In this document: one piece after another, positions 2,134-36,281 of the stretch
Layout of the letters: every line of letters begins with the position of its first letter
Position numbering within the stretch: position 1 is the first letter of the stretch
IMG/VR virus record: IMGVR_UViG_2861079508_000003
Location: 1 to 39,249 of that record
Strand: one strand, 5' to 3'
Source of the DNA: a virus
Taxonomy: Duplodnaviria > Heunggongvirae > Uroviricota > Caudoviricetes
Length of the DNA stretch: 39,249 bases
The notes under the pieces: generated by a model
Seen by the model: the letters and a program-made list of their open reading frames with translations, nothing else
Told to the model about the DNA's origin: nothing
The model's database searches: none
Position numbers and translations under genes: made by a program

Positions 2134-2134
2134 A

Positions 2135-8757: not shown

Positions 8758-9186
8758 ATGACTCCGTGTTTGGAATTTGGCGGTTTAAAGGACAGCAAGG
8801 GTTATGGAAGGGTTTGGATTAATGGGAAAAAAGTATTTGCTCATAGATTTGCTTATTGTGTGGCAAAAGGGATCCAGCTTGAAGATATAGATGGCTTAGT
8901 AATTCGTCACGCATGTGACAATCCTTCTTGTATTTTACCTTCTCATTTATGTGCTGGGACAAGTCAGCAAAACGCAAATGACATGGTGGAGAGAAAAAGG
9001 CAGGCATTTGGAAGCAGGAATGGTAGGGCAAAATTAACTGAAGATGATGTAAGAAACATCATTAGTGAATATATACCAAGACACCCCTTATTCAACACAA
9101 GGGCATTATCAAAAAAATATGGAGTAACGCCAAATTATATAGCTGCTATTTGCAGAGGTGAAAAATGGAAGCACATAAAAAAATAA
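8758..9186 (+). CDS. HNH homing-endonuclease-like protein (HNH_3-type core plus C-terminal HTH; 142 aa)
   Basis: ..SKGYGRVWINGKKVFAHRFAY..VIRHACDNPSCILPSHLCAGTSQQNANDM.. fits the HNH_3 pattern; inserted between cII and the replication genes. Confidence 0.7.
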   Translation: MTPCLEFGGLKDSKGYGRVWINGKKVFAHRFAYCVAKGIQLEDIDGLVIRHACDNPSCILPSHLCAGTSQQNANDMVERKRQAFGSRNGRAKLTEDDVRNIISEYIPRHPLFNTRALSKKYGVTPNYIAAICRGEKWKHIKK

Positions 9187-9261
9187 AACGCCCGGTGTGC
9201 AAGACCGAGCGTTCTGATCAAATACAAATGGAATTTTAACAACATCCAACGAGATAATTAT

Positions 9262-9534
9262 ATGCGAAACAAAGGCTTTAATCCACCTGATACACACAAA
9301 GAAGTTAAGCGTTTGCGCTTCCTTCGTTCCATTGATGAAAGAACTCAAATCTCTTTTGTGAAAGTTGCCAGAACTGAGCTTCTGAAGGCTGAGGCAAGGG
9401 CGTTGCTCCCGTCTCTACCAAAAGAGGAGGGATATACGTTCATTCCAAACGCATTTCTGGAAAAGCTTCTCAAAGAAGACATATCCGTAAGTCAGTTTAA
9501 CGATGTTCTTAAGGTCTTTCGTCAAGGCAGGTAG
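9262..9534 (+). CDS. Hypothetical protein (90 aa)
   Basis: ORF directly upstream of the replication initiator; no family recognised. Confidence 0.45.
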   Translation: MRNKGFNPPDTHKEVKRLRFLRSIDERTQISFVKVARTELLKAEARALLPSLPKEEGYTFIPNAFLEKLLKEDISVSQFNDVLKVFRQGR

Positions 9535-9536
9535 TT

Positions 9537-10484
9537 ATGAGCAATACAGCAAAAATCTACGATTTCAGCGCCGCACACGAGCGCAGGAGCAACAGGATGG
9601 AGAACCAGAAAACTGGTTACATTCCGTTGTACCGGAGCATTCTGAAACAGTCATGGGCGAAAGATGTTTATCTTCGCACCCTGTGGGAAAACCTTCTCCT
9701 GAATGCCGCCAGAAAGCCATACAAAGCGAATTTCAAAGGTCATGAATGGCATCTGCAACCCGGTCAACTGGTTGTGACAGCAGCTGATTTAGGTCTTCAG
9801 TTATGCGACAGGCATGGCAAGCCGGCAAGCCGTGATCAGGTTGAGCGGATGCTTCAGGTTTTTGTGAAAGAGGGGATGATCTCCATTGATGGAGAGAAGC
9901 AAAAAGGTCGTGTGATCACCATCACAAATTACCATGAATACGCTCAAAAAATGGACAATTCACCCGCACATGAAGCCGCACAAACAACCGCACATGATGC
10001 CGCACATGATGAAACCAGTAATGGCGCGGCATTCAGCGCACATGCCGCACATGAAAGCGCACATGAAGCCGCACAAACAACCGCACATCATGAACAAGAA
10101 GGTATTAACAAGAATATAAATAATACCCCCCTACCCCCCAATGGGGGAGGCGATGGGCAGGTTAAACCTGAACGTCGCAAGGCAGAACGAATCGACTATG
10201 AATCCTTCCTGAACGCCTACAACACCGAAGTCGGTGACAGACTGCCACACGCTGTTGCGGTCAACGAGAAACGCAAACGCCGCCTGAAGAAAATCATCCC
10301 GCAACTGAAAACGCCAAACGTGGACGGTTTCAGAGCGTATGTCAGGGCGTTTGTACATCAGGCCAAGCCGTTTTACTTCGGAGACAACGACACGGGCTGG
10401 ACAGCTGATTTTGATTACCTGTTGAGGGAAGATTCGTTAACTGGAGTACGGGAAGGGAAGTTTGCAGACAGGGGGATTGCATGA
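9537..10484 (+). CDS. O: Replication initiation protein (lambda O / P22 gene 18 type; 315 aa)
   Basis: N-terminus [10 protein letters not shown].. parallels lambda O (MTNTAKILNF..); contains an internal iteron array and AT-rich block as in lambdoid ori; followed by a coupled helicase gene. Confidence 0.75.
9964..10092. repeat. Replication-origin iterons: about 9 copies of a 12-bp unit (CCGCACATGAAG and variants), then AT-rich block and GC-rich palindrome (about 10093-10150)
   Basis: Tandem 12-bp periodicity visible in the DNA, encoding the [10 protein letters not shown].. repeats; iterons, AT-rich stretch and palindrome are the lambdoid ori arrangement. Confidence 0.6.
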
Positions 10485-11857
10485 GACAGGATATCGAAGC
10501 GAGCGTTATCGGTGGCCTGCTGATTGGTGGATTAACACCAACTGCCAGTGACGTTCTGGCAACGCTGGAGCCGGAAGCGTTTTCAATTCCGCTCTACCGG
10601 AAAGCCTTCGAGGTTATCCGCAAGCAGGCGAGAAACAGAAACCTAATCGATGCGCTGATGGTTGCCGAGGCGTGCGGAGAGGAGCATTTCACGTCAATCC
10701 TGATGACCAGCAAAAACTGCCCGAGTGCCGCAAACCTGAAGGGATATGCCGGAATGGTCGCGGATAACTATCACCGTCGTCTGGTGCTGGAAATCATGGA
10801 TGAAATGCGTGAACCAATTCAGAGCGGAACTATCGACGCATCGAGTCAGGCGATGGATGAACTTGTAAAGCGTCTTTCAGCCATCAGAAAGCCCCGTGAC
10901 GAGGTAAAACCTGTACGGTTAGGGGAAATCATTACTGACTACACTGACACGCTTGACAGGCGTCTGAGGAACGGAGAAGAGTCAGATACCCTGAAGACCG
11001 GAATCGAAGAACTTGACGCCATCACCGGAGGGATGAACGCAGAAGACCTGGTGATAATCGCTGCTCGTCCTGGTATGGGGAAAACCGAACTGGCTCTGAA
11101 GATTGCCGAAGGCGTTGCAAGCCGCGTTATTCCTGGTTCTGACGTCCGGCGCGGGGTATTGATTTTCTCGATGGAAATGAGCGCATTGCAGATTGCAGAG
11201 CGAAGCATTGCCAACGCCGGGAGGATGTCGGTTAGCGTACTGCGAAATCCTGCATCGATGGATGACGAGGGCTGGGCACGTGTTGCTAACGGCATGAGTC
11301 AGCTTGCAGATTTGGATGTATGGGTAGTCGATGCTTCGCGGTTATCGGTCGAAGAAATACGCTCAATCGCAGAACGGCATAAGCAGGAAAATCCAAACCT
11401 GTCACTCATCATGGTGGATTATCTTGGCCTGATTGAGAAGCCGAAAGCAGATCGCAACGACCTCGCAATTGCTCACATCTCCGGAAGCCTGAAGGCGATG
11501 GCGAAAGACCTGAAAACACCGGTTATCTCCCTGAGTCAGCTTTCGCGCGATGTTGAGAAGCGACCAAACAAACGCCCGACAAACGCAGATTTGCGTGATT
11601 CAGGAAGCATTGAACAGGACGCAGACTCAATCATCATGCTCTATCGGGAAGCGGTATATGACGAGAACAGTAGCGCCGCGCCATTTGCTGAAATCATCGT
11701 GACGAAAAACCGTTTTGGCTCACTTGGTACGGTTTACCAGCGGTTCTGCAACGGACACTTTGTTGCATGTGACCAGGATGAAGCCAGACAGATTTGCACA
11801 GCATCAAATGCACCTGCTGCGCGTGGCAGACGATATGCACAAGGGGCGGACGTATGA
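10481..11857 (+). CDS. Replicative DNA helicase, DnaB family (P22 gene 12 type; 458 aa)
   Basis: N-terminal DnaB domain and C-terminal RecA-like domain with Walker A ([12 protein letters not shown]) and DnaB motifs (..[10 protein letters not shown].., ..[12 protein letters not shown]..); start overlaps the O stop. Confidence 0.9.
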
Positions 11858-11882
11858 CCATCTACATCACTGAGCTTGTAAC

Positions 11883-11914
11883 AGGCCTGCTGGTAATCGC
11901 AGGCCTTTTTATTT
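11883..11914 (+). terminator. Rho-independent terminator after the helicase gene (tR2-like)
   Basis: Perfect 8-bp stem AGGCCTGC/GCAGGCCT with 8-nt loop followed by TTTTATTT. Confidence 0.55.
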
Positions 11915-11942
11915 GGGGGAGAGTAATTGGAGGCTTTAAGAA

Positions 11943-12170
11943 ATGAGTTCGATGACTGAGCTTGTCCGCGCCGACTTTCAGGAGAACATTGGTCGTGCAA
12001 AGCGGTACTGGTCTGCTTCCAGACTTCCGACTGGCGAGAGACAGAAAAACGCCCCTAAGCCACGTATCTATCCGCGTGACCGCGTTCTTCGCCGGTTGGT
12101 TAAAATCGATAATGATTTTCAGTGTGACAGAATTATCCAGCAATTAGATTTGATGACTGATGATGAATGA
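11943..12170 (+). CDS. Hypothetical protein (75 aa)
   Basis: ORF between helicase and ninB in operon orientation; overlaps the ninB start. Confidence 0.4.
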   Translation: MSSMTELVRADFQENIGRAKRYWSASRLPTGERQKNAPKPRIYPRDRVLRRLVKIDNDFQCDRIIQQLDLMTDDE

Positions 12171-12585
12171 TTTCATTCTGCACGAAACCAATAAATCACA
12201 ATTCTGGTTAGTTCTGAAACAAATCCTCTCTACTGGCAAACGCTGGCGAATCAAAATATCTGAGTACCGTGAGAAGCGTACATTGTCACAAAACAATCTG
12301 CTGTGGATGTGGAATGCAGAAATAGCCGCACAGTTATCTGCTGCTTCTGCTGAAAACTTCACGCCTGAAGAGGTTCATGAGTGGCTGAAAGATATATTTT
12401 GTCCGGCTAAAAGGGTGACGATTTTTAATATTACACGATGCGTTAAATCAACACGTCAGCTTGATATTGGAGATATGCACAAATATCTGACCGATATTGA
12501 CCAGTGGGCGCATCAGAAGGGATTACGACTAACCATTCCTGATAATTGCGAGTACCGGGATCTAAAGGAGAGGCAAGTAGAGTGA
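12160..12585 (+). CDS. ninB: NinB-like recombination protein (141 aa)
   Basis: ..RTLSQNNLLWMWNAEIA.. resembles the NinB/Orf motif (lambda ..RSLDQNRKLWACL..); first gene of the nin region. Confidence 0.7.
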   Translation: MMNDFILHETNKSQFWLVLKQILSTGKRWRIKISEYREKRTLSQNNLLWMWNAEIAAQLSAASAENFTPEEVHEWLKDIFCPAKRVTIFNITRCVKSTRQLDIGDMHKYLTDIDQWAHQKGLRLTIPDNCEYRDLKERQVE

Positions 12586-13109
12586 CTATCAAATCAAATA
12601 CGCCAGCGTCAGATAGGTATCGGCTTATTGAGGATTATCTGTATTTAGACGGAGATACAGTCAGATACAAAAAGGACTCGCTAAAACACCCCAACCACAG
12701 CCACCGGGCAGGAGATGAAATTAAAACATCGATAAATGGATCTGGGTATAGACAGGTGTGTTTTGCAGGCATTCAGATGTTTGTTCACGTAGTTGTTTTT
12801 GCGCTGCACAACAAAAGAATGCCATTGAAAAATATTGACCATATTAACGGAAACAGGCTGGACAATTCCCCAAAAAATCTTAGGGAGGCAGGCCGGATAG
12901 CAAACAGCCGAAATCAGAAAACTAAGTGCAATAGCCGTTCTGGAATAAAAAATGTTTTATGGAACAAGCAAAAAAATAAATGGGCCGTTCAAGTGCGCAC
13001 AGATTTTGGCCGGTTGTATTTTGGGCTCTATGAAGATCTTGAACTTGCTTGTTTGGTTGCCAGTGAGGCTATCAACAAATATCACGGACAATATGCGAAG
13101 GTTGTATGA
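12546..13109 (+). CDS. HNH homing-endonuclease-like protein with AP2-type DNA-binding domain (187 aa; may start at in-frame GTG 12582)
   Basis: ..KNIDHINGNRLDNSPKNLREA.. (HNH_3) followed by ..NKWAVQVRTDFGRLYFGLYEDLELA.. (AP2-like); GTG at 12582 has an AAGGAG RBS and overlaps the ninB stop. Confidence 0.7.
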   Translation: MRVPGSKGEASRVTIKSNTPASDRYRLIEDYLYLDGDTVRYKKDSLKHPNHSHRAGDEIKTSINGSGYRQVCFAGIQMFVHVVVFALHNKRMPLKNIDHINGNRLDNSPKNLREAGRIANSRNQKTKCNSRSGIKNVLWNKQKNKWAVQVRTDFGRLYFGLYEDLELACLVASEAINKYHGQYAKVV

Positions 13110-13636
13110 TTAAGCATAAATCAGAAACACCAAAAGAAGTTAGAGACTGCTGGCAAACGCCGCTTTGGCTTTTTGATGCACTGGATATTGAGTTTGGATT
13201 CTGGCTGGATTCGGCAGCGAGCGACAAAAATGCTCTGTGTGCTCACTGGCTAACTGAGGCCGACGATGCGCTCAATTCTGAGTGGGTAAGCCACGGTGCA
13301 ATCTGGAATAACCCACCGTACAGCAATATCAGGCCGTGGGTGGAAAAAGCCGCTGAGCAGTGCATACAACAGCGACAGACGGTAGTTATGCTTGTGCCAG
13401 AGGATATGTCAGTCGGATGGTTCAGCAAGGCTCTGGAGAGTGTCGACGAAGTTCGCATTATCACTGATGGACGGATTAATTTTATCGAACCATCGACAGG
13501 GCTGGAGAAGAAGGGAAACAGCAAAGGCTCCATGCTGCTGATTTGGCGACCGTTCATCAGTCCTCGACGGATGTTTACTACCGTATCCAAAGCGGCATTG
13601 ATGGCGATCGGGCAGGGCGTCAGGAGGGCGGCATGA
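13106..13636 (+). CDS. dam: Phage DNA N6-adenine methyltransferase (Dam-type; 176 aa)
   Basis: NPPY catalytic motif (..[10 protein letters not shown]..) and overall resemblance to phage N-6-adenine methyltransferases; coupled to neighbours by ATGA overlaps. Confidence 0.75.
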
Positions 13637-13815
13637 GGCGACAGCGACGAAGTTTCACCGATATCATCTGCGAAAACTGCAAATACCTTCCAACGAAACG
13701 CTCCAGAAATAAACGCAAGCCAATCCCAAAAGAATCTGACGTAAAAACCTTCAACTACACGGCTCACCTGTGGGATATCCGGTGGCTTAGAGAACGTGCG
13801 AGGAAAACAAGGTGA
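13633..13815 (+). CDS. ninE: NinE protein (60 aa from ATG at 13633)
   Basis: [60 protein letters not shown] is near-identical to recalled lambda NinE. Confidence 0.8.
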
Positions 13816-13982
13816 TTGACCCAAATCGAAGTTACGAACAAGAAAGCGTCGAGCGAGCTTTAACGTGCGCTAACTGCGGTCAGAAGCTGCATGTGCTGGA
13901 AGTTCACGTGTGCTCCGATTGCTGCGCAGAACTGATGAGCGATCCGAATAGCTCAATGTACGAGGAAGAAGACGATGAATGA
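13812..13982 (+). CDS. ninF: NinF protein (56 aa, GTG start), not in ORF track
   Basis: Manual translation [56 protein letters not shown] closely matches recalled lambda NinF; GTG overlaps the ninE stop. Confidence 0.7.
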
Positions 13983-15346: not shown

Positions 15347-15531
15347 ACGCCACAATTCAAACGATACCAGAGCTTCTTATCCAGACACGAGGCAATCAGA
15401 CCGAAGTGGCAAGGATGCTTTCCTGCGCAAGAGGAACAGTGCTCAAGTACAACCGAGACAGCAAAGGCGAGCGTCACGTAATAGTTAACGGCGTCCTGAT
15501 GGTCAAACAGGGCAAGAGGGGAAGACGATGA
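15343..15531 (+). CDS. ninH: NinH protein (62 aa)
   Basis: ..GNQTEVARMLSCARGTVLKYNRD..VIVNGVLMV.. parallels lambda NinH (..GNQTEVARRLKCSRGTVRKYVDD..AIVNDVLMV..). Confidence 0.7.
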   Translation: MNATIQTIPELLIQTRGNQTEVARMLSCARGTVLKYNRDSKGERHVIVNGVLMVKQGKRGRR

Positions 15532-16046
15532 GCATAAGAGAACTAAACCTCACCAAAGAACAGCACGATTGGCTGAATGGCTGGCTTGAACTGTGGGGAG
15601 CATGGGTTTATTCAGGTCGTCTGGAAAAGCGCATGAGCAGCGTAATAGCTAAGTTCATGGAGAGCGTAGAGCCGGGAAGAGTTATGACAAGGCCAATGTG
15701 TAATGATGATGATGGAATGTTGATTTCTCAGGTCGTCGATTCCGTCATGTACATTGACAAGAAAGCCTTTGGCATCCTCCTCAGCTACTACGCTCATGGT
15801 TCATCTAAGCGAGCAATTGCATCCTACTATCACGCGACTGCAAAGCCACGCAAGATGTGTGGACGTGGTGGCGAGGGATGGAGAAAACCTTCACTGGCAA
15901 CCTGTAGAAACGAAATTGACGACATCCTGAAAGCGTCATTATTTGTTTTATACCAGCCAATGCAAAATGCTTTCAAAATGCGTAAACGTGTTGAGAAAGT
16001 TAAGCATGTTGCCGTTAAAAGCCTTGACATGCAATTAGCCATTTAG
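15528..16046 (+). CDS. Q: Late-gene antitermination protein Q (non-lambda Q family; 172 aa)
   Basis: Last gene before the late promoter and lysis genes; resembles antiterminator Q proteins of the phage-82 type from memory; a promoter and close terminator follow. Confidence 0.65.
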   Translation: MSIRELNLTKEQHDWLNGWLELWGAWVYSGRLEKRMSSVIAKFMESVEPGRVMTRPMCNDDDGMLISQVVDSVMYIDKKAFGILLSYYAHGSSKRAIASYYHATAKPRKMCGRGGEGWRKPSLATCRNEIDDILKASLFVLYQPMQNAFKMRKRVEKVKHVAVKSLDMQLAI

Positions 16047-16053
16047 CCATAAT
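16024..16053 (+). promoter_or_regulatory. Putative late promoter PR' (-35 TTGACA, about 18-bp spacer, -10 CATAAT)
   Basis: Consensus -35 hexamer overlapping the last codons of Q, with a good -10, as for lambdoid PR'. Confidence 0.5.
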
Positions 16054-16096
16054 ATTCACATATGCTGCTGCTTTTGCATTCAGCAACCATCACAAG

Positions 16097-16118
16097 CCCA
16101 CCTCCTGTGGGTTTTTTT
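16097..16118 (+). terminator. Putative tR' terminator downstream of PR'
   Basis: Hairpin CCCAC-CTCCT-GTGGG followed by TTTTTTT about 50 nt downstream of the predicted start. Confidence 0.55.
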
Positions 16119-16240
16119 GCATTCGCGTGCAATCAAAACAAGAGTCTTAGTGATATGGGCCTGAGATATGGTGGTGGAAACATCGCTCCGCTCTTGGCTG
16201 TCATATCTACGCGAACAGGCTCTATCCCTAAGGTAAAGCG

Positions 16241-16753
16241 ATGAAAGAAATAAAATTAACGCCAGAAATGGTGCTTTCTGTTGTTGATTACAATCCATCA
16301 TCAGGCGACTTTCACTGGAGATGGAGGCAGGGGAGAGAGAGGACCACTTTGACATGGAACTCTCGTTTTGCTTTCAAGAAATGCTCATCAATAAATTCTG
16401 ATGGGTATTTAATGATTATGATTAATGGTAAAGCATACCCTGCTCACAGACTGGCATGGTTGATTGTTTATGGCACCATGCCCGATGGTTTTATTGATCA
16501 CATCAACAGGGTAAGAACAGATAACCGGATATCAAATCTTCGTCTTGTCACTCATTCCGAAAATATGCAAAACAGGAAAATTCAGAAGAATAATAAATCT
16601 GGATACCGTGGCGTGTCTTGGGATGCTAAGTACGGGAAATGGAGAGCAAGAATTAATGCGTCTGGAAAGTGTATTAACCTTGGATACCATGACACTGCCG
16701 AACTTGCCGCTGCGGCTTTTGAGGCAGCCAGAATGAAATATCATACCGTTTAA
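16241..16753 (+). CDS. HNH homing-endonuclease-like protein with AP2-type domain (170 aa)
   Basis: ..AHRLAWLIVYGTMPDGFIDHINRVRTDNRISNLRLVTHSENMQNR.. (HNH_3) plus ..SGYRGVSWDAKYGKWRARI..GYHDTAELAAAAFEAA.. (AP2-like); inserted in the late-operon leader. Confidence 0.75.
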   Translation: MKEIKLTPEMVLSVVDYNPSSGDFHWRWRQGRERTTLTWNSRFAFKKCSSINSDGYLMIMINGKAYPAHRLAWLIVYGTMPDGFIDHINRVRTDNRISNLRLVTHSENMQNRKIQKNNKSGYRGVSWDAKYGKWRARINASGKCINLGYHDTAELAAAAFEAARMKYHTV

Positions 16754-16807
16754 AGATGTAAGCTGCCGTTAGTGACTCTTAAGTTGCAACGGTGGCTTTT
16801 TTTATTT

Positions 16808-16882
16808 GGGTCAGTCGTATAAAGGTCATTACGGAAGGCTGTTAACCTTCTTATCGTGGTTCGAGTCCACGCTGTCCCGCCA
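16808..16882 (+). tRNA. tRNA-Asn (anticodon GTT), putative
   Basis: Hand-folded cloverleaf: 7-bp acceptor stem (one U-U mismatch), D-arm with GG, anticodon loop CTGTTAA, T-arm CGTGG-TTCGAGT-CCACG, discriminator G and encoded CCA. Confidence 0.5.
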
Positions 16883-16887
16883 AATAT

Positions 16888-16963
16888 GCTGGTTTAGCTC
16901 CAATGGTAGAGCAGTCGCCTTGTAAGCGAATGGGTAGCGGTTCAAGTCCGTTAACCAGCACCA
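16888..16963 (+). tRNA. tRNA-Thr (anticodon TGT), putative
   Basis: Hand-folded cloverleaf: acceptor GCTGGTT/AACCAGC, D-stem GCTC/GAGC, anticodon loop CTTGTAA, T-arm AGCGG-TTCAAGT-CCGTT, discriminator A and encoded CCA; 76 nt. Confidence 0.6.
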
Positions 16964-19171: not shown

Positions 19172-19172
19172 T

Positions 19173-19369: not shown

Positions 19370-19864
19370 ATGAATATGGCGGCACCAAAGGGCAACCGAT
19401 TTTGGGAGGCCCGCAGTAGTCATGGGCGAAACCCGAAATTCGAATCGCCTGAGGCGCTGTGGGCTGCTTGTTGTGAATACTTCGAGTGGGTAGAAGCTAA
19501 CCCGCTATGGGAGATGAAGGCGTTCTCGTATCAGGGTGAAGTGATACAAGAGCCTATCGCCAAGATGCGAGCGATGACTATTACCGGACTCACTCTGTTC
19601 ATTGATGTGACGCTTGAAACATGGCGCACATATCGCCTGCGAGAAGATTTATCTGAAGTCGTTACGCGAGCAGAGCAGGTCATCTACGACCAGAAATTCT
19701 CTGGCGCAGCCGCTGACCTTCTCAACGCTAACATCATCGCCCGTGATTTGGGCCTCAAAGAGCAGTCGCAAGTTGAAGACGTGACACCTGATAAGGGAGA
19801 TCGCGATAAGCGGCGCTCTCGTATCAAGGAGCTATTCAACCGTGGAACTGGACGCGATTCTTGA
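19370..19864 (+). CDS. Terminase small subunit (P22 gp3 position; 164 aa)
   Basis: Immediately precedes and overlaps the large terminase gene; size and synteny as for P22 gene 3. Family assignment by position and size. Confidence 0.65.
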
Positions 19865-21341
19865 TAACCTGAGCGACGAAGAGCAAATCGAGTTGCTCGA
19901 GCTACTCGAAGAAGAAGAGAACTACCGGAACACACACCTGCTATATGAATTTACGCCATACAGCAAACAGCGTGAGTTCATCGACGCCGGGCATGACTAT
20001 CCAGAACGCTGTTTTATGGCTGGTAACCAGCTTGGTAAGTCATTTACCGGTGCTGCCGAAGTCGCGTTTCACCTTACAGGGCGTTATCCGGGCACAAAAG
20101 GCTATCCTGCTGATGGTAAATATGGCGGTGAGTGGAAAGGTAAGCGTTTCTATGAGCCTGTTGTCTTCTGGATTGGCGGCGAGACAAACGAGACGGTAAC
20201 CAAAACGACTCAACGCATCCTGTGCGGTCGTATCGAAGAGAATGACGAGCCAGGCTACGGTTCCATACCGAAAGAAGACATCATTAGCTGGAAGAAGTCT
20301 CCTTTCTTTCCGAACCTTGTTGATCATCTTCTGGTTAAGCATCACACGGCTGATGGCGTTGAAGATGGCATTTCAATCTGCTACTTCAAACCATACTCGC
20401 AAGGCCGCGCTCGCTGGCAGGGTGACACAATCCACGGCGTGTGGTTTGACGAAGAGCCACCATACAGCATTTATGGTGAAGGCCTTACCCGTACCAACAA
20501 ATACGGGCAATTCTCAATTCTGACGTTTACCCCGCTGATGGGGATGTCTGACGTTGTTACCAAGTTCCTGAAGAATCCCAGCAAGTCGCAGAAAGTCGTC
20601 AACATGACCATCTATGACGCCGAGCACTACACAGACGAGCAGAAAGAGCAAATCATCGCATCCTATCCTGAGCATGAGAGAGAGGCGCGTGCTCGCGGTA
20701 TTCCTACGATGGGTAGCGGGCGAATCTTCCAGATACCGGAAGAGACGATTAAGTGTCAGCCGTTCGAGTGTCCTGATCACTTCTACGTAATTGGCGGGAT
20801 GGATTTCGGATGGGATCACCCGCAGGCGCAGGTTCAGCTTTGGTGGGATAAGGACGCAGACACAATCTACGTTTCACGCGTGTGGAAGGCGAAAGAAAAA
20901 ACAGCCGTTCAGGCATGGGGAGCTGTTAAATCATGGGCGCATAAAGTGCCAACAGCATGGCCTCATGACGGAAACCAGCATGAGAAGGGCGGCGGTGAGC
21001 AGCTCAAAGGGCAGTATGCAGACGCTGGTTTTATGATGTTGCAGGAGCATGCGACATGGCCTGATGGCGGTAATGCCGTGGAGCCTGGCATCACTGAATT
21101 GCGCGACATGATGCTCGATGGTCGCTTCAAAGTATTCAACACCTGTGAGCCATTCTTTGAGGAGTTCCGCCTCTATCACCGTGATGAAAACGGGAAGATC
21201 GTCAAGCTTAACGACGACGTGCTATCAGCCGTTCGCTATGCATACATGATGCGCCGCTTCGCCAAAATGATGCGCGACATCAAAAAACCAAAAGAGAAAA
21301 AGATACCAGCCCCAATCAGGCCCATCGCACGGAGAACTTAA
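19842..21341 (+). CDS. Terminase large subunit (P22 gp2 type; 499 aa)
   Basis: Same length as P22 gp2; contains an ATPase-like segment (..[14 protein letters not shown]..) and a nuclease domain; followed by portal. Confidence 0.85.
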
Positions 21342-26510: not shown

Positions 26511-27929
26511 ATGCCGATTCAGCAACTTCCGCTTATGAAAGGTGTCGGCAAAGACTTTCGAAACGCCGACTATATCGACTATCTGCCAGTGAATATGCTG
26601 GCTACACCCAAAGAAATCCTCAACAGCAGCGGATATCTTCGCTCATTCCCGGGCATTGCCAAACGCTCTGACGTGAACGGCGTATCGCGAGGCGTCGAGT
26701 ACAACATGGCGCAGAATGCTGTTTATCGCGTGTGTGGTGGCAAGCTGTACAAAGGAGAAAGTGAAGTCGGTGATGTTGCCGGAAGTGGTCGTGTATCAAT
26801 GGCTCATGGTCGGACATCTCAGGCTGTAGGCGTTAATGGTCAACTGGTCGAGTATCGCTATGATGGCACGGTTAAAACCGTCTCAAACTGGCCTGCAGAC
26901 AGCGGATTCACGCAGTATGAGTTAGGCTCAGTCCGCGACATTACGCGATTACGTGGGCGTTATGCGTGGTCAAAAGACGGCACCGATTCATGGTTTATCA
27001 CTGACCCTGAAGACGAATCGCATCCTGACCGCTACAGCGCACAATATCGGGCAGAATCACAGCCTGACGGAATAATCGGTATCGGAACATGGCGAGACTT
27101 CATTGTCTGCTTTGGTTCATCGACGATTGAATATTTCTCCCTGACTGGTGCAACCACCGTTGGTGCCGCGTTGTATGTCGCACAGCCATCGCTGATGGTG
27201 CAGAAAGGTATTGCCGGGACTTACTGCAAAACGCCGTTTGCTGATTCGTATGCGTTCATCAGCAATCCGGCAACGGGTGCGCCATCTGTATACATCATCG
27301 GCTCCGGTCAGGTGTCACCAATCGCCAGCGCGAGCATTGAGAAAATCCTCCGCTCCTACACTGCTGATGAACTGGCTGATGGTGTGATGGAATCGCTGCG
27401 ATTTGATGCTCATGAGTTGCTGATTATCCACCTTCCGCGCCATGTTCTCGTGTACGACGCATCTTCAAGCGCCAATGGTCCTCAATGGTGTGTGCTGAAA
27501 ACAGGGCTGTATGACGATGTGTACCGCGCTATCGACTTCATTTACGAAGGCAATCAGATAACGTGCGGCGATAAGCTGGAATCGGTTACCGGCAAATTGC
27601 AGTTCGATATCAGCAGCCAGTACGACAAGCAACAGGAACATATTTTATATTCTCCTTTAATAAAGGCAGATAACGTTTTAATAAATGACCTTGAATTAGA
27701 AACATCTGGCGGCGTGTGTGATAGAATAGATAGAATATTTATATCAGCAACTACAGATGGAATTAATTACGGTCGTGAGCAAATGGTCGTATTACAAAAA
27801 CCATTTGTATATGACAATCGCGTTTTATGGCGAAAAGTTGGTCGAGTTAGACGCCTCATCGGATTTAAATTCAGAGTTATTGCAAAAGGTCCTGTTACAT
27901 TATCAGGCCTTTCTATTCGTGTAACATAA
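26511..27929 (+). CDS. Tail accessory / head-completion protein (P22 gp10 type; 472 aa)
   Basis: Same length as P22 gp10 and correct synteny (4-10-26). Confidence 0.8.
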   Translation: MPIQQLPLMKGVGKDFRNADYIDYLPVNMLATPKEILNSSGYLRSFPGIAKRSDVNGVSRGVEYNMAQNAVYRVCGGKLYKGESEVGDVAGSGRVSMAHGRTSQAVGVNGQLVEYRYDGTVKTVSNWPADSGFTQYELGSVRDITRLRGRYAWSKDGTDSWFITDPEDESHPDRYSAQYRAESQPDGIIGIGTWRDFIVCFGSSTIEYFSLTGATTVGAALYVAQPSLMVQKGIAGTYCKTPFADSYAFISNPATGAPSVYIIGSGQVSPIASASIEKILRSYTADELADGVMESLRFDAHELLIIHLPRHVLVYDASSSANGPQWCVLKTGLYDDVYRAIDFIYEGNQITCGDKLESVTGKLQFDISSQYDKQQEHILYSPLIKADNVLINDLELETSGGVCDRIDRIFISATTDGINYGREQMVVLQKPFVYDNRVLWRKVGRVRRLIGFKFRVIAKGPVTLSGLSIRVT

Positions 27930-27958
27930 ATCGAAACTAAAGGAGTAGATATGTTGAG

Positions 27959-27966
27959 TGAAAACG
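27959..27966. repeat. IS1 target-site duplication, left copy (TGAAAACG)
   Basis: Identical 8-mer directly flanks both IS1 ends. Confidence 0.6.
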
Positions 27967-27981
27967 GGTAATGACTCCAAC

Positions 27982-28485
27982 TTATTGATAGTGTTTTATG
28001 TTCAGATAATGCCCGATGACTTTGTCATGCAGCTCCACCGATTTTGAGAACGACAGCGACTTCCGTCCCAGCCGTGCCAGGTGCTGCCTCAGATTCAGGT
28101 TATGCCGCTCAATTCGCTGCGTATATCGCTTGCTGATTACGTGCAGCTTTCCCTTCAGGCGGGATTCATACAGCGGCCAGCCATCCGTCATCCATATCAC
28201 CACGTCAAAGGGTGACAGCAGGCTCATAAGACGCCCCAGCGTCGCCATAGTGCGTTCACCGAATACGTGCGCAACAACCGTCTTCCGGAGCCTGTCATAC
28301 GCGTAAAACAGCCAGCGCTGGCGCGATTTAGCCCCGACATAGCCCCACTGTTCGTCCATTTCCGCGCAGACGATGACGTCACTGCCCGGCTGTATGCGCG
28401 AGGTTACCGACTGCGGCCTGAGTTTTTTAAGTGACGTAAAATCGTGTTGAGGCCAACGCCCATAATGCGGGCTGTTGCCCGGCAT
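27982..28485 (-). CDS. insB: IS1 transposase InsB (expressed as InsAB' by frameshift in canonical IS1)
   Basis: [58 protein letters not shown].. matches IS1 InsB. Confidence 0.9.
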
Positions 28486-28679
28486 CCAACGCCATTCATG
28501 GCCATATCAATGATTTTCTGGTGCGTACCGGGTTGAGAAGCGGTGTAAGTGAACTGCAGTTGCCATGTTTTACGGCAGTGAGAGCAGAGATAGCGCTGAT
28601 GTCCGGCGGTGCTTTTGCCGTTACGCACCACCCCGTCAGTAGCTGAACAGGAGGGACAGCTGATAGAAACAGAAGCCAC
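28404..28679 (-). CDS. insA: IS1 protein InsA
   Basis: [68 protein letters not shown].. matches IS1 InsA. Confidence 0.9.
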
Positions 28680-28734
28680 TGGAGCACCTCAAAAACACCA
28701 TCATACACTAAATCAGTAAGTTGGCAGCATCACC

Positions 28735-28742
28735 TGAAAACG
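28735..28742. repeat. IS1 target-site duplication, right copy (TGAAAACG)
   Basis: Identical 8-mer to 27959-27966. Confidence 0.6.
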
Positions 28743-29264
28743 CAAAAGATATTCCTGGATATGAAGGTTTATATGCCGTAACAGAGGATGGGCGAGTATA
28801 TTCTCACTCACGTGTTGTTAAGGCTGCGCATGGCAGCACGCAACTCAGAAAGGGGCGGTGGCTAAAACAACACGAGAATAATAAAGGTTATCTATATTTG
28901 CCACTTAGTGTTGATGGAGTTAAAGTAAAATGGCTTGTGCATAGGCTTGTCGCTCTTGCTTTCGTCCCCAACCCAGAAGGCAAGCCGTTCATAAATCACA
29001 TAGATAACAACCCAAAAAATAATAATGCTTCTAATTTAGAGTGGTGCACTCAAAAGGAGAATATGAAGTATTGCTCATCTCAAGGCAGGGTGAAGTTCCC
29101 GGCTTTAAAAGGAGAAAATAATCCAATTTCAAAGCTCTCATATGAGCAAGTAATAGAAATAAAGAAATCAAAGGGAGTTAATCAAAGAGAGCTTGCTAAA
29201 AAATACTGTGTCAGTCAGACGGTGATTCACAATATCCAGTCTGGTAAATCGTGGAGGCATGTTA

Positions 29265-30113
29265 ATGGCTGATTCGAATCTCAATACACCTGTTATTGTT
29301 CAGGCGACGCGGCTCGATACATCAGTCCTTCCACGCAATATCTTCTCGCAGTCGTATCTGCTTTACGTTATCGCACAGGGCACTGATGTTGGTAACGTGG
29401 CTAACAAGGCCAACGAGGCCGGACAGGGCGCTTATGACGCACAAGTCAGGAACGATGAGCAGGATGTGATTCTCGCTGACCATGAGCAGCGAATTTCTGC
29501 TGCGGAAGCAACGCTTGTTAATCATGAGGAGCGAATCAGCCAGGCAGAATCAACTCTTCAGGAACATGAAACACGAATAGCTCAGAATGAAAGCGATATT
29601 GCGTCTCTTGATACCAGAGTTCAGTCGCTCGAATCGCAGGTTTCAGACCATGAAACGCGCATCGATGCTCTGGAGTATGCCACTAATCGCAAAAAGTCAG
29701 AGGTTGTTTACTCTGGCGTATCTGTAACCATCCCGACAGCGCCGACCAACCTTGTTAGCCTGCTGAAAACGCTCACTCCGTCATCCGGCACGTTGGCACC
29801 GTTCTTCGACACCGTTAACAACAAGATGGTTGTGTTCAACGAGAACAAAACCTTGTTCTTCAAGCTGTCGATCGTCGGGACGTGGCCCAGCGGAACCGCC
29901 AACAGGTCAATGCAGCTAACATTTTCCGGTTCTGTTCCTGACACACTGGTAAGCAGTCGCAACTCGGCGACAACAACCGACAACATCCTGTTAGCTACGT
30001 TCTTCAGCGTGGATAAAGACGGCTTTCTTGCCACAAATGGCAGTACGTTAACCATTCAGTCGAATGGTGCGGCGTTTACTGCCACAACCATCAAGATAAT
30101 CGCGGAGCAGTGA
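29265..30113 (+). CDS. Tail needle protein (P22 gp26 type N-terminus with a different C-terminal domain)
   Basis: [68 protein letters not shown].. matches recalled P22 gp26 N-terminus, then heptad-rich coiled coil; C-terminal about 130 aa differ from P22. Confidence 0.8.
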
Positions 30114-30568: not shown

Positions 30569-30570
30569 CC

Positions 30571-31263: not shown

Positions 31264-31272
31264 GGGGTAATC

Positions 31273-32700
31273 ATGGCTACTTGGCAAGGAACAAACGGCG
31301 GATTGTTGGCTGGTATCGGCGGCGTCAACTCAAACGCTCCGAGCGTAAATGACATCGGCAATACGCTTCAGCTTATCAGGCAGAACAATGATATTGAGCG
31401 TTCAGGCGCTAACAATGTTGGGCTGACTGCTTTGCAAGGCCTTTCAGGTATTGCGGGGGTGTTTCAGCAGGAAAAGCAGGCTCAGCGGCAGAAAGAATTT
31501 CAGCAGGCATACGCTAATGCTTATGCGTCTGGTGATCGCGGTGCTTTGCGTCAGTTGGCTACTCAATATCCAGACCAGATTGAATCCGTTCGTAAAGGCA
31601 TGGGATTCATTGATGAAGAGCAGCGTAATTCTATCGGCACCTTAGCGGCTGGCGCACGCCTTGCGTCATCGTCTCCAGAAGCAATGCAATCATGGCTGCA
31701 AAACAACGCCAAGGAACTGGCGCGCGTCGGTGTTGACCCTAACAACGTTGCTCAGATGTATCAGCAGAATCCTTCAGGGTTTGGTGAGTTTGTTGATCAC
31801 CTTGGGATGGCTGCTCTCGGTCCGATTGACTACTTCAATGTTCAGGACAAGATGGCTGGTCGGGATATTGAGCGTGGCGAGTTGGCAGAGACGATTCGCA
31901 GCAATAAAGCTGGGGAAGGTTTACAGGCGCAAAGCATTGCTGTTAGCCGTGAAAACTCCCTGCGCACTGCTGGAGGTGCTGTTCCTGCATCTGTTAAAGA
32001 ATATCAATATTTCAACAGCCTGTCTCCAGAGCAACAAAAGACATATCTTCGTGTTCGAGGCCGTCCTGATGCTGGCGGGGAGAATGTTGTGCAACTGGCA
32101 GATGGTAGAACGGTAACGGTAGGCGGGAAACTTCACGGCGCTGGGGCTAATGCGTTCTACGAAGGCATCGATAACGAGGGGAATATGGTTCGCGTTCCTG
32201 CCAGTTCAATCGCTGCTCCTGCAACATCGTCTGCATCAGCACAAAACTATGCCATGAAGAAGGATATCGACGCGATCGCAAATGCAGACGCTTCTGCTCT
32301 CGATTTCATGACAGGAATGACCGGCGGCGCAGGTAACCCGGCAATTGGTGCTGATGTTCGCAGCCGATTAACAGGAAAAGAGCAGCGCCAGTTATATAAC
32401 TCAGCACAACGTATTCAGGGCAGAATGCAGAATCAGGGTGTGGCGGCAGCAAGGGACATGGGGGCCAGTGGTATTAACACCGTTGCAGAAGCGAAGATGT
32501 ATTTTCAGGGGATGCCGCAGGTTGACTATTCAAGCCCGGAGGCTATGCAGCAGTCGATTCGTGAGATTCAGGAATACACCAACAATTACAACCAACAATA
32601 TAACGTTAATGTTGGTAAATCTCAGCGGCAGCAATCTCAACCTGCACAGGTATCACAGCCAGCAGCCAGCAGTAACTTTTCTTCACTATGGGGTGATTAA
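31273..32700 (+). CDS. Ejection protein, P22 gp20 type (475 aa)
   Basis: Size (P22 gp20 about 471 aa) and synteny; Gly/Ala/Gln-rich composition typical of E-proteins. Confidence 0.7.
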
Positions 32701-34697
32701 TGGCTAAAGCATGGAAAGATGTTATCGCCTCTCCACAGTATCAGGCGTTAGCACCAGAACAAAAAGCGCAGGCTCAGGAGCAATACTTCAATGAAGTCGT
32801 TGCCCCGCAAGCCGGAGAAAATGCAGAGCAGGCTAAGCAAGCTTTCTATGCTGCCTATCCATTGCCATCTGTGCAGCCAGTGGATACACAGCAACCAGTA
32901 GCACAGCAACAACCGCAGCAAAGTGGATTTATGTCTGATCTTGGTGAAGCAGTGAAAGAGACTGGTCGCGGACTGGTGCAGGCTGGCGTGAACGTGGCAA
33001 ACATACCTGCATCAGTTGCAGATGCTGTAACAAGCGCGGCGGCTTGGGCTGGCGGTAAACTCGGCATTGGCGATGGTACATATCAACCAGCGCCACGAGT
33101 AACAACGCAGGGATTAGAGCAGGACTTTGGCCTTCAGCAAGGCGCGCTTACTCCACAAACGACAGAGGGAAGGGTATTTGCTGAAGCATTGCCTTACCTC
33201 ACTCCTGCTGGCGTTGAGAGAGCGGCAGCGCAGGCACCAACACTTGCTGGTCGAATTGCTCAGGGGGCAACTCGCCTTCTGGCAGAAAACGCAGTTGGAT
33301 CACTTGCTGCAAATAGTGCGAAAGATGATGCGGAAGCACTCGCCACCGATTTAGGCGTTGGTGTACTTACTGGCGGTGCTATTAACGCTGCCGGACGTGG
33401 ATTAGGTGCTGCTTATCGTGGCGTTCGTGGTGCTATCGCGCCAGAAGCGCAGCAGGCTATCAGATTTGCAGAGCGTGAAGGAGTTCCTCTGCACACCACA
33501 GACCTGTTACAACCAACTTCCCGCGTCGGAAAAATGGCGCAGACTACAGCAGAAAATATCCCTCTGGCTGGCACAAGCGGAATGAGAGCAACGCAACAGG
33601 AAGCGAGAAGCCAGTTGGTGCAGAGATTTGCTGATAAATTCGGTGAGTATGATCCAGCGGTTGTTATTGACAGCCTTAAAGCGAAAACATCAGGAATTCG
33701 TCGTGCCGCCGGTAATCGACTGGAGCAGGTTCAGAATGCTATGGCTGGAGTAAACATTCAGCCTGCTCGAGCAATTCAGCAGATTGATACAGAAATATCT
33801 AATCTGCAGAAGCTTGGTAAGGTCGCCGATAACGAGACTATTTCAAAACTTCAGTCCTATCGTGATGAGCTTGTTCGCAATGCTGGTCCTGATGGTCCGG
33901 TAAATCTGGATTTGAAGCAATTAAGCGACCTGCGCAGTCAGTTCAGAATGGACGTGAAGGGTGAGCGACCAGTGTTACCAAACCGTTCCGATGCTGCCAT
34001 TCAGCGCGTTTACAAGGCAATGACTGACGATATCAATGGTGCCATTGGTCAGAATCTTGGCAACGATACTCTCCGTAAATATCAGCAGGCCAATGCCGTC
34101 TATGCTGACGAAGCTGCGAAACTAAAGAATACCAGGCTGAAGAATGTTCTCATGAAAGGCGATCTGACGCCGGAAGTTGTCAACAACATGCTATTCAGCA
34201 AGAACAAATCGGAAATTAAGAATCTGTATAACTCAGTTGGTCGTGTTGGCAGGGCGCAAATGCGCAATGGCATCATTGGAAAGGCGATGGAGAAATCTGG
34301 CGGATCCCCTGACCAGTTCCTTCGACAGCTTAACATCCTGCAAAACCAGACTGGCATCACATTTAAGGGGCAGGACGCTGCTTATCTGAAAGGATTGAAA
34401 AACTACCTGCAATCCACGCAGCAGGCTGCAAAAGCGGCAGTAACAACACCAACAGGGCAGCAAACCATCCCGTTCATTATCGGATATGGGACAGCAATGA
34501 ACCCGGCGACAACTGGCGCAGCAGTAAGCTACGGACTTCTTACTCGCGCATATGAGAGCGAGCCATTCAGAAATGCAATGCTCCGAATGGCAAACACCCC
34601 ACGCGGATCAACAGCCTTTGAGAAAGCAATGCAGCAGGCACAAAAGGCAATTAACGCTCTGACGCAGGGGGCTAAGTCTGATGCGTTGTCAGAATAG
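32700..34697 (+). CDS. Ejection protein, P22 gp16 type (665 aa)
   Basis: Synteny and size (P22 gp16 about 609 aa); last gene of the rightward structural operon before converging minus-strand genes. Confidence 0.7.
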   Translation: MAKAWKDVIASPQYQALAPEQKAQAQEQYFNEVVAPQAGENAEQAKQAFYAAYPLPSVQPVDTQQPVAQQQPQQSGFMSDLGEAVKETGRGLVQAGVNVANIPASVADAVTSAAAWAGGKLGIGDGTYQPAPRVTTQGLEQDFGLQQGALTPQTTEGRVFAEALPYLTPAGVERAAAQAPTLAGRIAQGATRLLAENAVGSLAANSAKDDAEALATDLGVGVLTGGAINAAGRGLGAAYRGVRGAIAPEAQQAIRFAEREGVPLHTTDLLQPTSRVGKMAQTTAENIPLAGTSGMRATQQEARSQLVQRFADKFGEYDPAVVIDSLKAKTSGIRRAAGNRLEQVQNAMAGVNIQPARAIQQIDTEISNLQKLGKVADNETISKLQSYRDELVRNAGPDGPVNLDLKQLSDLRSQFRMDVKGERPVLPNRSDAAIQRVYKAMTDDINGAIGQNLGNDTLRKYQQANAVYADEAAKLKNTRLKNVLMKGDLTPEVVNNMLFSKNKSEIKNLYNSVGRVGRAQMRNGIIGKAMEKSGGSPDQFLRQLNILQNQTGITFKGQDAAYLKGLKNYLQSTQQAAKAAVTTPTGQQTIPFIIGYGTAMNPATTGAAVSYGLLTRAYESEPFRNAMLRMANTPRGSTAFEKAMQQAQKAINALTQGAKSDALSE

Positions 34698-34787
34698 CTT
34701 TTCAAACACCAGGAACGTGCAAAAACCAAATATGTAGAACGCGAGGTTTATCGTACAACTCTGCATAGGAGATACCTTTGCTGATTG

Positions 34788-35273
34788 TTATCTTATGTTA
34801 CTGCTACTGTTGCATGTGACTGTATTTCCAAACCCTGAATTGCAGTTTGTGTAAGTGTCAACGCGTGTTGGATAGGGTTGAGTTATAACAGGCTGTCTCG
34901 CTTTTTGCTCGATCGCTTGCATTGTGTTTACAGCCTGATAATTCAATAAAGCCTGCTGGAATGCTTGGCTTTGTGCTATTTGTTGGGCTTGTTCTTGGCT
35001 TTGTAATTGAACATAAAGATTCTGAAGCTCAAGTCTTGCCTGTGCGTCACTTATCTTGCCTTCATCGACACCTTGCCCGAGCATCTTTGCAGCAAGGACA
35101 TACAGCTTAGGTGTTGGTGCTGATGCCATGCGTGAGTCGTTCTTCACACTGGCATCAAGGCAATTAGCCATATCGCTAAGCTTTTGATAGCGTTGTTCGC
35201 AACTTGCTTGATAGTCACTTACTTTTGCGCATCCAACCAGCAGAAGCGGGATAATTAACAGTGATTTTTTCAT
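34788..35273 (-). CDS. Putative lipoprotein (signal peptide with lipobox LLVGC; about 161 aa from internal ATG)
   Basis: MKKSLLIIPLLLVGCAK.. is a textbook lipoprotein signal peptide; Gln-rich helical middle; lies downstream of mnt on the same strand, where P22 carries sieA. Confidence 0.55.
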   Translation of the reverse strand: MKKSLLIIPLLLVGCAKVSDYQASCEQRYQKLSDMANCLDASVKNDSRMASAPTPKLYVLAAKMLGQGVDEGKISDAQARLELQNLYVQLQSQEQAQQIAQSQAFQQALLNYQAVNTMQAIEQKARQPVITQPYPTRVDTYTNCNSGFGNTVTCNSSSNIR

Positions 35274-35343
35274 ATGGTTAACTCTCCTTAGTTTTTCACA
35301 GGATATCATGAAGGCTATGCCATTTTAGCCGGAAACTAGATTT

Positions 35344-35643
35344 CTATGTTTCCTTTTTATTATTGCTATACATGGTCTTAAGCGTATCAAAGACAATTTT
35401 CTTAACCATCTCAGATTGTTGTTCTGCCATACGCTCTGCATCGTCAATGTAAACAGATGCAGAGCTTTCTTTAGCCAATGATTCTTCAATCGCTGCAATT
35501 ATCTCTGAGTTCAGAGACCTGTTATTCATCTTCGCACGCTGTTTAATCTTCGCGTGGAGTTCATGCGGAAGTCTCAAGTGAAACTGCGCCTCGTCGTATT
35601 TGCTGTACATCCTTGATGCCTCACCAGTTGGGTGGAATGGCAT
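35344..35643 (-). CDS. mnt: Mnt-like ribbon-helix-helix repressor (Arc/MetJ family)
   Basis: ..FHLRLPHELHAKIKQRAKMNNRSLNSEIIAAIEESL.....DDAERMAEQQSEMVKKIVFDTLKTMY.. parallels recalled P22 Mnt; start could be Met1 or Met12 (35610). Confidence 0.7.
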   Translation of the reverse strand: MPFHPTGEASRMYSKYDEAQFHLRLPHELHAKIKQRAKMNNRSLNSEIIAAIEESLAKESSASVYIDDAERMAEQQSEMVKKIVFDTLKTMYSNNKKET

Positions 35644-35741
35644 CGTAACCTACTGGATAAATACTCAATAGTACCATTTCGGTATGCAATCACATCATGG
35701 TTGCATCATATCATTCGTCTGGAGCAATGAAATGTCAGATA

Positions 35742-36281
35742 TCACCTACCATGATTCTCATGATAACCATAGGTCTTTTCAGCCTCACGCCTTACAGCAA
35801 TTGCATCATCGAGACACTTAAAGTATCCGAGATTAATGCGCTTCCCTGCGTCGCTAATATATGCCACCCACTTTTTATGGGTCTTATGCCATGAAACACC
35901 TGCGCACCCAGATGTATTGTTTGTGTATTTAGATTTGTTTTTTAGGTTTTCACCGAGACTAACTAGACGCAGGTTGTCTATTGAATTATTTAACCCATTA
36001 CCATCTTTATGGTCAATTTGCATTCCTGAAGGGATTTCACCATAAAACATTTCCCATATTATCCTATGGGCGGCGTATATTTTATCTTGATACCTGATAA
36101 TTATATAAGATGTTTTCCTGTTCTTGTCCTTGAATATATGTCCTGCAGGCTTTTCTTTAGAGATATTGAACATTTTGGGTCTTGAAAGATATTGGTCACT
36201 CCAGTACAGGAGTCCATCGTCTTTTAATACGAATACTTCGTTCCAGTTCATGTTAACCACCTTTAAATAAAGTTCACTCAT
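35742..36281 (-). CDS. HNH homing-endonuclease-like protein with AP2-type domain (179 aa)
   Basis: ..[47 protein letters not shown].. (HNH_3) plus ..[36 protein letters not shown] (AP2-like); occupies the position of arc/ant in P22. Confidence 0.7.

Follow-up and report, generated by a model that had tools for sequence, protein, structure and literature searches.

The window analysed here, a viral stretch of 39,249 bp recorded in IMG/VR as IMGVR_UViG_2861079508_000003, contains a P22-like (Lederbergvirus-type) prophage in which, very probably, five free-standing homing endonuclease genes of the HNH (beta-beta-alpha-metal) type, unrelated by descent, have been stacked. It matches exactly positions 1895481-1934729 of the chromosome of Escherichia coli M160133 (NZ_CP022164.1), an isolate from human urine, and the prophage attachment is between sbcB and dacD. 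The five genes, here denoted H1 to H5 in their order along the window, had been singled out in a first-pass annotation made from the sequence alone, and all five open reading frames (ORFs) indeed exist at, or very near, the positions that it gave, with the start of H2 and the length of H5 refined below. The neighboring modules are those named at that stage as well, the gene order being cII, H1, replication genes; NinB-like gene, H2, dam; Q, H3, tRNAs and holin; gp10, H4, tail needle; and Arc-family (mnt-like) gene, H5, tailspike. A tblastn search with the five proteins as queries found exactly these five genes in the window and no further copies. An Rfam scan of the whole window detected no intron families, the only matches being two tRNAs, and this result indicates that the five genes are free-standing; likewise, a check of the surroundings of the genes revealed no inteins, and the host genes beside each insert are complete ORFs.

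All five proteins match the HNH_3 profile of Pfam (PF13392) above its curated gathering score of 24.8 bits (28.9, 39.2, 66.1, 39.7 and 72.4 bits for H1 to H5, respectively), and all five match PHROG families annotated as 'HNH endonuclease' (E-values from 3e-28 to 3e-73; PHROG_59 and PHROG_6254 in the case of H1). HNH_3 scores of this strength in all five ORFs are not a product of chance, and the core proposed for these proteins in the first-pass annotation is thus borne out. The PGAP annotation of RefSeq already labels four of the five ORFs 'HNH endonuclease' (e.g., WP_038977196.1 for H1) or 'HNH endonuclease signature motif containing protein', and the fifth, H4, 'NUMOD4 domain-containing protein'. 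In the alignment of H2, H3 and H5, D86/H87, N99 and N108 are invariant, and the alignment of H1 displays the catalytic pattern RH...N...H...N. The H4 protein, restored by removal of an insertion sequence (see below), is similar to the homing endonuclease I-HmuI (1U3E; E-value 1.2e-11), with the equivalents of His75 and Asn96 retained. Judging by these alignments, the catalytic histidine and the conserved asparagine of the beta-beta-alpha-metal motif are predicted to be present in all five proteins.

A DNA-binding module (AP2, NUMOD4 or helix-turn-helix, HTH) is attached to each of the nuclease cores, although the HTH of H1 is below the Pfam threshold. An AP2 domain had been claimed for three of the proteins. 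In H3, this domain is detected above the Pfam threshold (35.1 bits), and the C-terminus of the protein is similar to the AP2 domain of WRI1 (7WQ5; E-value 2e-6). The match in H5 (23.1 bits, E-value 9e-5) falls below the threshold. There is no Pfam call for AP2 in H2, for which the assignment derives from alignment and predicted fold: the protein aligns with H3 and H5 through the AP2 region, and in its AlphaFold model (mean predicted local distance difference test score, pLDDT, 76.5) the C-terminal domain consists of three strands and a helix and resembles the plant AP2 structures 7ET4 and 7WQ5 (Foldseek probability 1.0, root mean square deviation 1.4-3.0 Å). In the Foldseek search with the whole-chain H2 model, the AP2 domain alone was matched and the nuclease core had no significant match, so that the assignment of the H2 core rests on Pfam and the alignment. 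The NUMOD4 and HTH domains proposed for the remaining two proteins fared differently from each other: NUMOD4 is confirmed in the restored H4 protein (44.6 bits, above the threshold), whereas neither H1 nor H4 reaches the threshold for HTH. H1 and H4 have the HNH core and a C-terminal tail in common.

Two architectures can thus be distinguished. H2, H3 and H5 fall into the phage 'HNN-AP2' class, in which an N-terminal domain is followed by the HNH_3 core and an AP2 DNA-binding domain, and H1 and H4 are I-HmuI-like, with (NUMOD4), HNH_3 and a C-terminal helix-turn-helix-like tail. The pairwise identity among the five proteins does not exceed 42%, and their nearest relatives beyond enteric prophages, which are spread over many phage groups, show no more than 45-54% identity.

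The insertion points were delineated by comparison of alleles that contain a given gene (filled) with those that lack it (empty). The first-pass annotation placed each gene exactly between conserved modules. The comparison revises this view: the inserts interrupt cII within its 3' end, dam and the tailspike gene within their 5' ends, and the late-promoter leader, and in the case of H4 the junction is at a replaced 3' end of gp10. Every cassette brings along a diverged replacement for the segment that it splits off, with the original segment remaining on the far side. The presence of duplicated, diverged termini at the junctions indicates that the filled alleles are the derived state. The spare diverged end has three further implications, namely that the host phage gene still works, that the occupied allele lacks an intact putative target, and that the endonuclease gene is flanked on either side by short homology arms. 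All five inserts have a GC content of 36-43%, compared to 47% for the prophage, a composition that suggests a foreign origin.

H1 (8758-9186, plus strand) encodes a 142-residue HNH_3 endonuclease with a weak C-terminal HTH and is contained in a 478-bp insert (8707-9184, plus strand; 37.7% GC) within the 3' end of cII. Alignment of the filled allele with the empty allele of TL20 places the insertion point 44 bp before the end of cII, and the insert is flanked by 11-bp direct repeats (AAAACGCCCGG) at 8696-8706 and 9185-9195. The left end of the insert provides a new 13-residue C-terminus of CII (ADIFAENQLTMNF), and the original cII 3' end (9185-9228, plus strand), which encodes VCKTERSDQIQMEF followed by a stop codon and is near-identical to the cII 3' end of the empty allele, is now a non-coding remnant downstream of H1. 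H1 is always located 10 bp after cII, with at least five different replication modules downstream and several repressor/cro types upstream; a 551-bp block (8685-9235) that includes the remnant is all that these contexts have in common. In one lambdoid prophage with H1 (GCA_050232415.1), a second NUMOD4 and HNH_3 gene (4050-4544) is found between an HTH_36 replication gene and a Toprim primase-helicase gene, which implies that other prophages also stack endonuclease genes, at sites outside the window.

H2 (12582-13109, plus strand) encodes a 175-residue endonuclease with HNH_3 and an AP2 fold. Its start is most likely the GTG codon at 12582, not TTG at 12546; this is the start chosen by PGAP and corresponds to the dam start codon in the empty alleles. 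The start codon and the first nine codons of H2 (VTIKSNTPA) are those of dam in the empty alleles, the insert (12608-13144, plus strand; 537 bp, 40.4% GC) being positioned after dam codon 9, where it replaces 10 bp. The right end of the insert provides a new ATG, which overlaps the H2 stop codon (ATGA), and a new N-terminus of dam; H2 is an ORF separate from dam despite the nine common codons. H2 is always fused to dam in this manner, with either of two NinB types upstream. The slot after NinB is occupied in other phages by different genes: in APC_JM3.2 (2919-3521), by an HNH gene that is 43% identical to H3 over 60 residues only, and in SEN22, by an HNH gene without a tblastn match to any of the five. 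SEN22 possesses an additional endonuclease gene between the terminase and portal genes (the two SEN22 genes are at 34750-35331 and 1970-2470). Several slots thus seem to be reused by different endonuclease genes.

The gene for the 170-residue HNH_3 and AP2 endonuclease H3 (16241-16753, plus strand) was previously assigned to the interval between Q with the tR' terminator and the lysis genes. It does follow Q; however, its position is between two copies of the late leader and of a terminator-like hairpin. Where Q ends, the best match to a promoter is a late-promoter-like site (16024-16053, plus strand; TTGACA, 18 nt, CATAAT; 11 of 12 matches), and the H3 insert (16054-16757, plus strand; 704 bp, 42.6% GC, replacing 6 bp) begins with the base that directly follows its -10 hexamer. 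The insert consists of a diverged leader, a terminator-like hairpin (16094-16114, followed by a T run) and then H3. The diverged leader contains TATGCT where the original has TAAGCT, in both cases 7 nt past the -10 hexamer, and the original leader and hairpin now follow H3, at about 16758-16806. The same hairpin is marked as a rho-independent terminator in the annotation of the lambda-like siphovirus HK629, in which H3 is 100% identical. Constitutive transcription of H3 from between the late promoter and the terminator was considered and rejected in view of the leader and hairpin (16094-16114) that the insert itself places upstream of the gene; H3 is more likely to be Q-dependent. H3 always follows this type of Q, with or without tRNAs and with either of two holin types. 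The PhiR12 phages (PhiR12_1, 1273-2068) combine Q and the H3-type leader with the first 68 bp of H3, after which the sequences diverge; this piece is a truncated endonuclease-gene remnant. The tRNA pair of the window, tRNA-Asn(GTT) and tRNA-Thr(TGT) (16808-16963), lies between the late-promoter leader and the holin gene; it is present in some alleles without H3 and missing from some alleles with it, and is thus independent of the endonuclease gene.

H4 (27951-27966 and 28743-29272, spanning 27951-29272; plus strand), an I-HmuI-like gene with NUMOD4, HNH_3 and a weak HTH, is located between the gp10 stop codon and the start of the tail-needle gene and is disrupted after codon 5 by IS1 (insA/insB; 27967-28734, minus strand; 768 bp; 'IS1A family transposase' in PGAP) with an 8-bp target duplication (TGAAAACG) at 27959-27966 and 28735-28742. 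Without IS1, H4 encodes 181 residues and is 98.9% identical to the uninterrupted gene of phage HZ41. The IS1 copy, which lies in the late operon between gp10 and the needle gene, is unique to M160133, being absent from HZ41 and from all other filled alleles listed. The 3' end of gp10 (27600-27929, plus strand) is a variant with 36% GC, compared to 52% in the rest of gp10, and is common to every filled allele of the H4 site examined. Two of these (L011 and L012) are 95-97% identical to the window over 27300-27966, compared to 82-85% over 27300-27830 for the empty alleles, in which the last 100 bp lack any match. At the protein level, the last approximately 100 residues of the variant differ markedly from those of the empty-allele protein, and the two gp10 types bear different PGAP product names. 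The variant was also found beside a NUMOD4-HNH gene that is just 49% identical to H4. In some phages the gp10/needle slot harbors H4 and in others genes that are 38-54% identical to it. The linkage of the gp10 variant to the genes at this site is an indirect hint that the flanks may have been co-converted.

H5 (minus strand) encodes an HNH_3 and AP2-like protein of 169 residues in the PGAP annotation (35742-36251) or 179 residues in the longest ORF (35742-36281). Alignments of the filled allele with the empty alleles of EC01307 and IME10 define a 590-bp insert (35747-36336, minus strand; 36.4% GC) that interrupts the tailspike gene within its 5' end, following the fifth codon. The former ribosome-binding site and the first five codons of the tailspike gene are left at 35721-35746, the stop codon of H5 falls within this remnant, and the insert provides a new ribosome-binding site and N-terminus for the tailspike protein (start at 36339). 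H5 always precedes the tailspike head-binding domain and has arc or ant on its left. The tailspike gene itself (36339-38816) has 37.8% GC, compared to the prophage mean of 47%, and the first approximately 350 bp, which encode the head-binding domain, are the sole part that matches relatives; these features fit a swapped receptor-binding part.

The filled and empty alleles were counted in 5,426 complete E. coli genomes. H1 is present in 6 genomes, with the cII flank found in 1,643 and empty alleles in, for example, TL20 and VTB96933v. H2 is present in 33 genomes, with at least 21 empty alleles in which both flanks are the same and many more with dam alone; H3 in 39, with at least 21 empty alleles among those listed and probably hundreds in total; and H5 in 15, with at least 45 empty alleles. 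For H4-type genes, i.e., NUMOD4 genes at the gp10/needle joint, at least 50 of the 1,233 genomes matching the gp10/H4/needle region are filled and at least 10 are empty. Most relatives with conserved flanks lack these genes, contrary to what would be expected of ancestral core genes. All five occur together in M160133 alone, and no other genome appears on more than two lists of filled alleles. A DNA search of the phage collection retrieved close copies of H3 (HK629) and H4 (HZ41) only, with no close copy for H1, H2 or H5. The exact proteins are nevertheless widespread in draft genomes from E. coli, Salmonella, Shigella and E. albertii, the number of contigs per protein ranging from 163 to at least 1,000, and every one of these copies is named HNH endonuclease.

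The same pattern is seen among the closest relatives of the prophage. The prophages EC11 and MS14385, the closest ones, which share the attachment site, contain none of the five except H1 and have no insert at the ninB-dam, Q-tRNA and gp10-needle joints. Among the nearest isolated phages, IME10 lacks all five genes, an intact H4 is the only one found in HZ41, and APC_JM3.2 also lacks all five but has one unrelated HNH gene after NinB. Thus, these five close relatives have zero or one such gene each, and the published P22-like phage SEN22 has two. Within this limited panel of relatives, and for these five sites, five such genes in a 39-kb temperate prophage is unusual, in agreement with the first-pass annotation, which had pointed to the high density. 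Independent acquisition of the five genes, suggested at the same stage, is likewise supported by these comparisons because sequence identity among the proteins is at most 42%, each gene has a separate distribution in the population, and each is linked to a different constant flank.

Taken together, the anatomy and the distribution of the inserts are most readily explained by homing. A phage that carries one of these genes would meet a relative that lacks it, either in co-infection or in superinfection of a lysogen; the nuclease would nick or cut the intact target near the insertion point in the empty relative; and recombinational repair would copy the gene, along with some flanking sequence, into the broken genome, i.e., intron-less homing with co-conversion. 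Successive events of this kind, combined with ordinary lambdoid recombination, could have stacked the five genes in the lineage, and a later IS1 insertion would have knocked out H4. The nuclease activity, target specificity and time of expression of the five proteins, as well as the role of the genes in shaping the mosaic joints, are predictions from sequence comparison.

Several observations weigh against this scenario. Even in lambdoid phages that lack these genes, the five junctions are mosaic boundaries, and the pattern of constant and variable flanks could accordingly reflect modular exchange that carries a passive gene. The implied left homology arms are short (26 bp for H2 and about 26 bp for H5). 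The near-identity of the proteins across hundreds of contigs is compatible with recent spread and, to the same degree, with purifying selection for a useful function of some kind. The Pfam score of H1 barely exceeds the threshold, and the residue beside the catalytic histidine, Asp74 in I-HmuI, is Arg in H1 and Asn in H4; the activity of both proteins is a prediction. Finally, a promoter for H5 was sought and none convincing was found.

The alternative explanations with the greatest bearing overlap with homing and do not exclude it. The genes might be kept as useful nucleases that cut competitor phages lacking the insert, in the manner of interference competition or superinfection exclusion, with their spread being a by-product. 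Marker exclusion by the seg and mob endonucleases of phage T4 and interference competition mediated by intron endonucleases are documented; the presumed targets, namely cII, dam, the Q leader, gp10 and the tailspike gene, would be conserved among lambdoid phages that circulate together; each of the five target regions exists as a single copy in M160133; and selection would fit the near-identity of each protein across hundreds of contigs from four taxa. Nevertheless, we regard this possibility as tentative and clearly less probable than homing. H1 and H2 belong to the early-right operon and H3 and H4 to the Q-dependent late operon, so that four of the five genes are in operons that should not be expressed in a lysogen and could not protect it; any benefit would be limited to lytic co-infection, in which it is inseparable from homing. 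Furthermore, each of the genes occurs in just 0.1-1% of genomes, a rarity that sets it apart from defence genes of broad use. Domestication for phage functions, either as terminase partners akin to the HNH proteins of HK97-type cos phages or as AP2-type regulators of phage genes, is far more remote. AP2 domains are sequence-specific DNA binders and some terminase-adjacent HNH proteins are required for packaging, but none of the five genes adjoins the terminase genes (19370-21341), and none qualifies as an HK97 gp74-type terminase-associated HNH factor. All five are missing from most close relatives and from viable isolates such as IME10, which means that none is a core function, and a core role in packaging or regulation is ruled out by position together with this absence; moreover, the HNH_3 family takes its name from homing endonucleases, and the residues of the nuclease are preserved.

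The inserts could also be passive cargo or decaying relics, each introduced by a single illegitimate recombination and then moved by ordinary homologous exchange, with no present nuclease-driven mobility. All five sites are classical mosaic joints, and every filled allele of a given gene has the same junction and remnant, which implies a single founding insertion per gene. Decay does occur, as indicated by the IS1-split H4, the PhiR12 remnant of H3 and a 113-residue H3 fragment present on 132 contigs. We nonetheless consider such a passive history rather improbable. Four of the five genes, like nearly all of the population copies listed, retain an intact reading frame and the catalytic residues. 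The identical H1 protein is associated with several immunity types and with replication modules of at least five unrelated kinds, which points to very recent movement of the 551-bp block, a movement easier to envisage with break-stimulated recombination. In addition, the slots hold divergent endonuclease genes in other phages, as described above for the gp10/needle joint (38-54% identity to H4) and for the NinB slot of APC_JM3.2 and SEN22, and repeated occupation of a slot is typical of active homing sites.

The free-standing seg and mob endonuclease genes of T4 spread by intron-less homing with co-conversion; the Seg proteins are of the GIY-YIG family, and only the Mob proteins are HNH nucleases. 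Like H1-H5, these genes reside between or at the ends of conserved genes, are variably present and are linked to flank polymorphisms, the counterpart here being the gp10 3' variant; however, the nuclease families differ, T4 is lytic, and homing of the present genes is a prediction. I-HmuI, the nicking homing endonuclease of Bacillus phage SPO1, resembles H4 over NUMOD4 and the HNH core but is encoded inside a group I intron, in contrast to the free-standing H1 and H4. For H2, H3 and H5, the closest parallel is with the 'HNN-AP2' endonuclease genes, which are free-standing in the lytic phages Xp10, Xop411 and OP1, T1, T5 and Felix O1-like phages, with 6-8 such genes per 44 kb in each of the Xanthomonas phages Xp10, Xop411 and OP1 (PMC2248197). 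The architecture and the conserved boxes are the same (HRLAW, DH, DNR, NLR, EN, then AP2), although the Xop411 and Xp10 proteins that best match H3 are at most 45% identical to it. The density in the Xp10-type phages is approached by that in the M160133 prophage (five genes in 39 kb); the former are virulent, whereas the latter is a temperate P22-like prophage with genes of two architectures.

Among temperate phages, the Cluster J mycobacteriophages contain numerous free-standing HNH genes precisely inserted at gene borders, one of which creates a new 3' end for the neighboring gene, and a role in mosaicism has been proposed (PMC3706429). These phages infect a host of another phylum, carry HNH genes of other sub-families, and have genomes of approximately 110 kb with a lower density of such genes per kb. 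In ICP1 and other phages, nuclease genes, including HNH-AP2 ones, adjoin essential genes and mark recombination boundaries (PMC10448857); that study deals mostly with virulent phages, and the words temperate, prophage and lambda appear nowhere in its text. Relatives of the M160133 prophage provide more direct precedents, with H4 itself (98.9% identity) in the same slot in HZ41; genes 48-54% identical to H4 in UPF_BP1, N7 and ST-35, that of UPF_BP1 within the virion-gene block; HNH genes after NinB and between the terminase and portal genes in SEN22 (PMC5261728); and such an endonuclease gene on record for the P22-like phage epsilon34 (PMC2629481). Each of these phages has one or two such genes, compared to five in M160133.

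Thus, neither the proteins nor the concept is new, and the prophage exemplifies a phenomenon that had already been described. Most discussion of free-standing homing endonuclease genes concerns large virulent phages, and the M160133 prophage indicates that small temperate lambdoid phages can gather such genes at a similar density. It offers five clean pairs of filled and empty alleles (cII, dam, Q leader, gp10/needle and tailspike) in a very well understood phage system, in which homing, and breaks as a source of mosaic joints at gene boundaries, can be tested by the standard genetics of E. coli and P22-like phages. More speculatively, and in our estimate with low probability, the cassettes might be built as portable units that bring their own homology arms and may enter any allele of the target gene, whatever module lies beyond it. 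If so, and if the breaks start a large proportion of exchanges, such genes would be a main cause of the much-debated location of mosaic joints precisely at gene ends in lambdoid and P22-like phages, and a temperate phage could accumulate endonuclease genes like stacked gene drives.

For genome annotation, the relevant points are that H2 starts at the original start codon of dam, that cII, dam and the tailspike gene have replaced termini, and that the H3 insert results in two copies of the late leader and the terminator-like hairpin. Elsewhere in the window, the early-left region (1793-3724) contains several genes that are partial or frameshifted according to PGAP (ead/Ea22-like and small hypothetical ones), and the right end (39065-39249) contains a truncated S24-peptidase/HumD-like fragment, also a PGAP call, that is present in related prophages as well.

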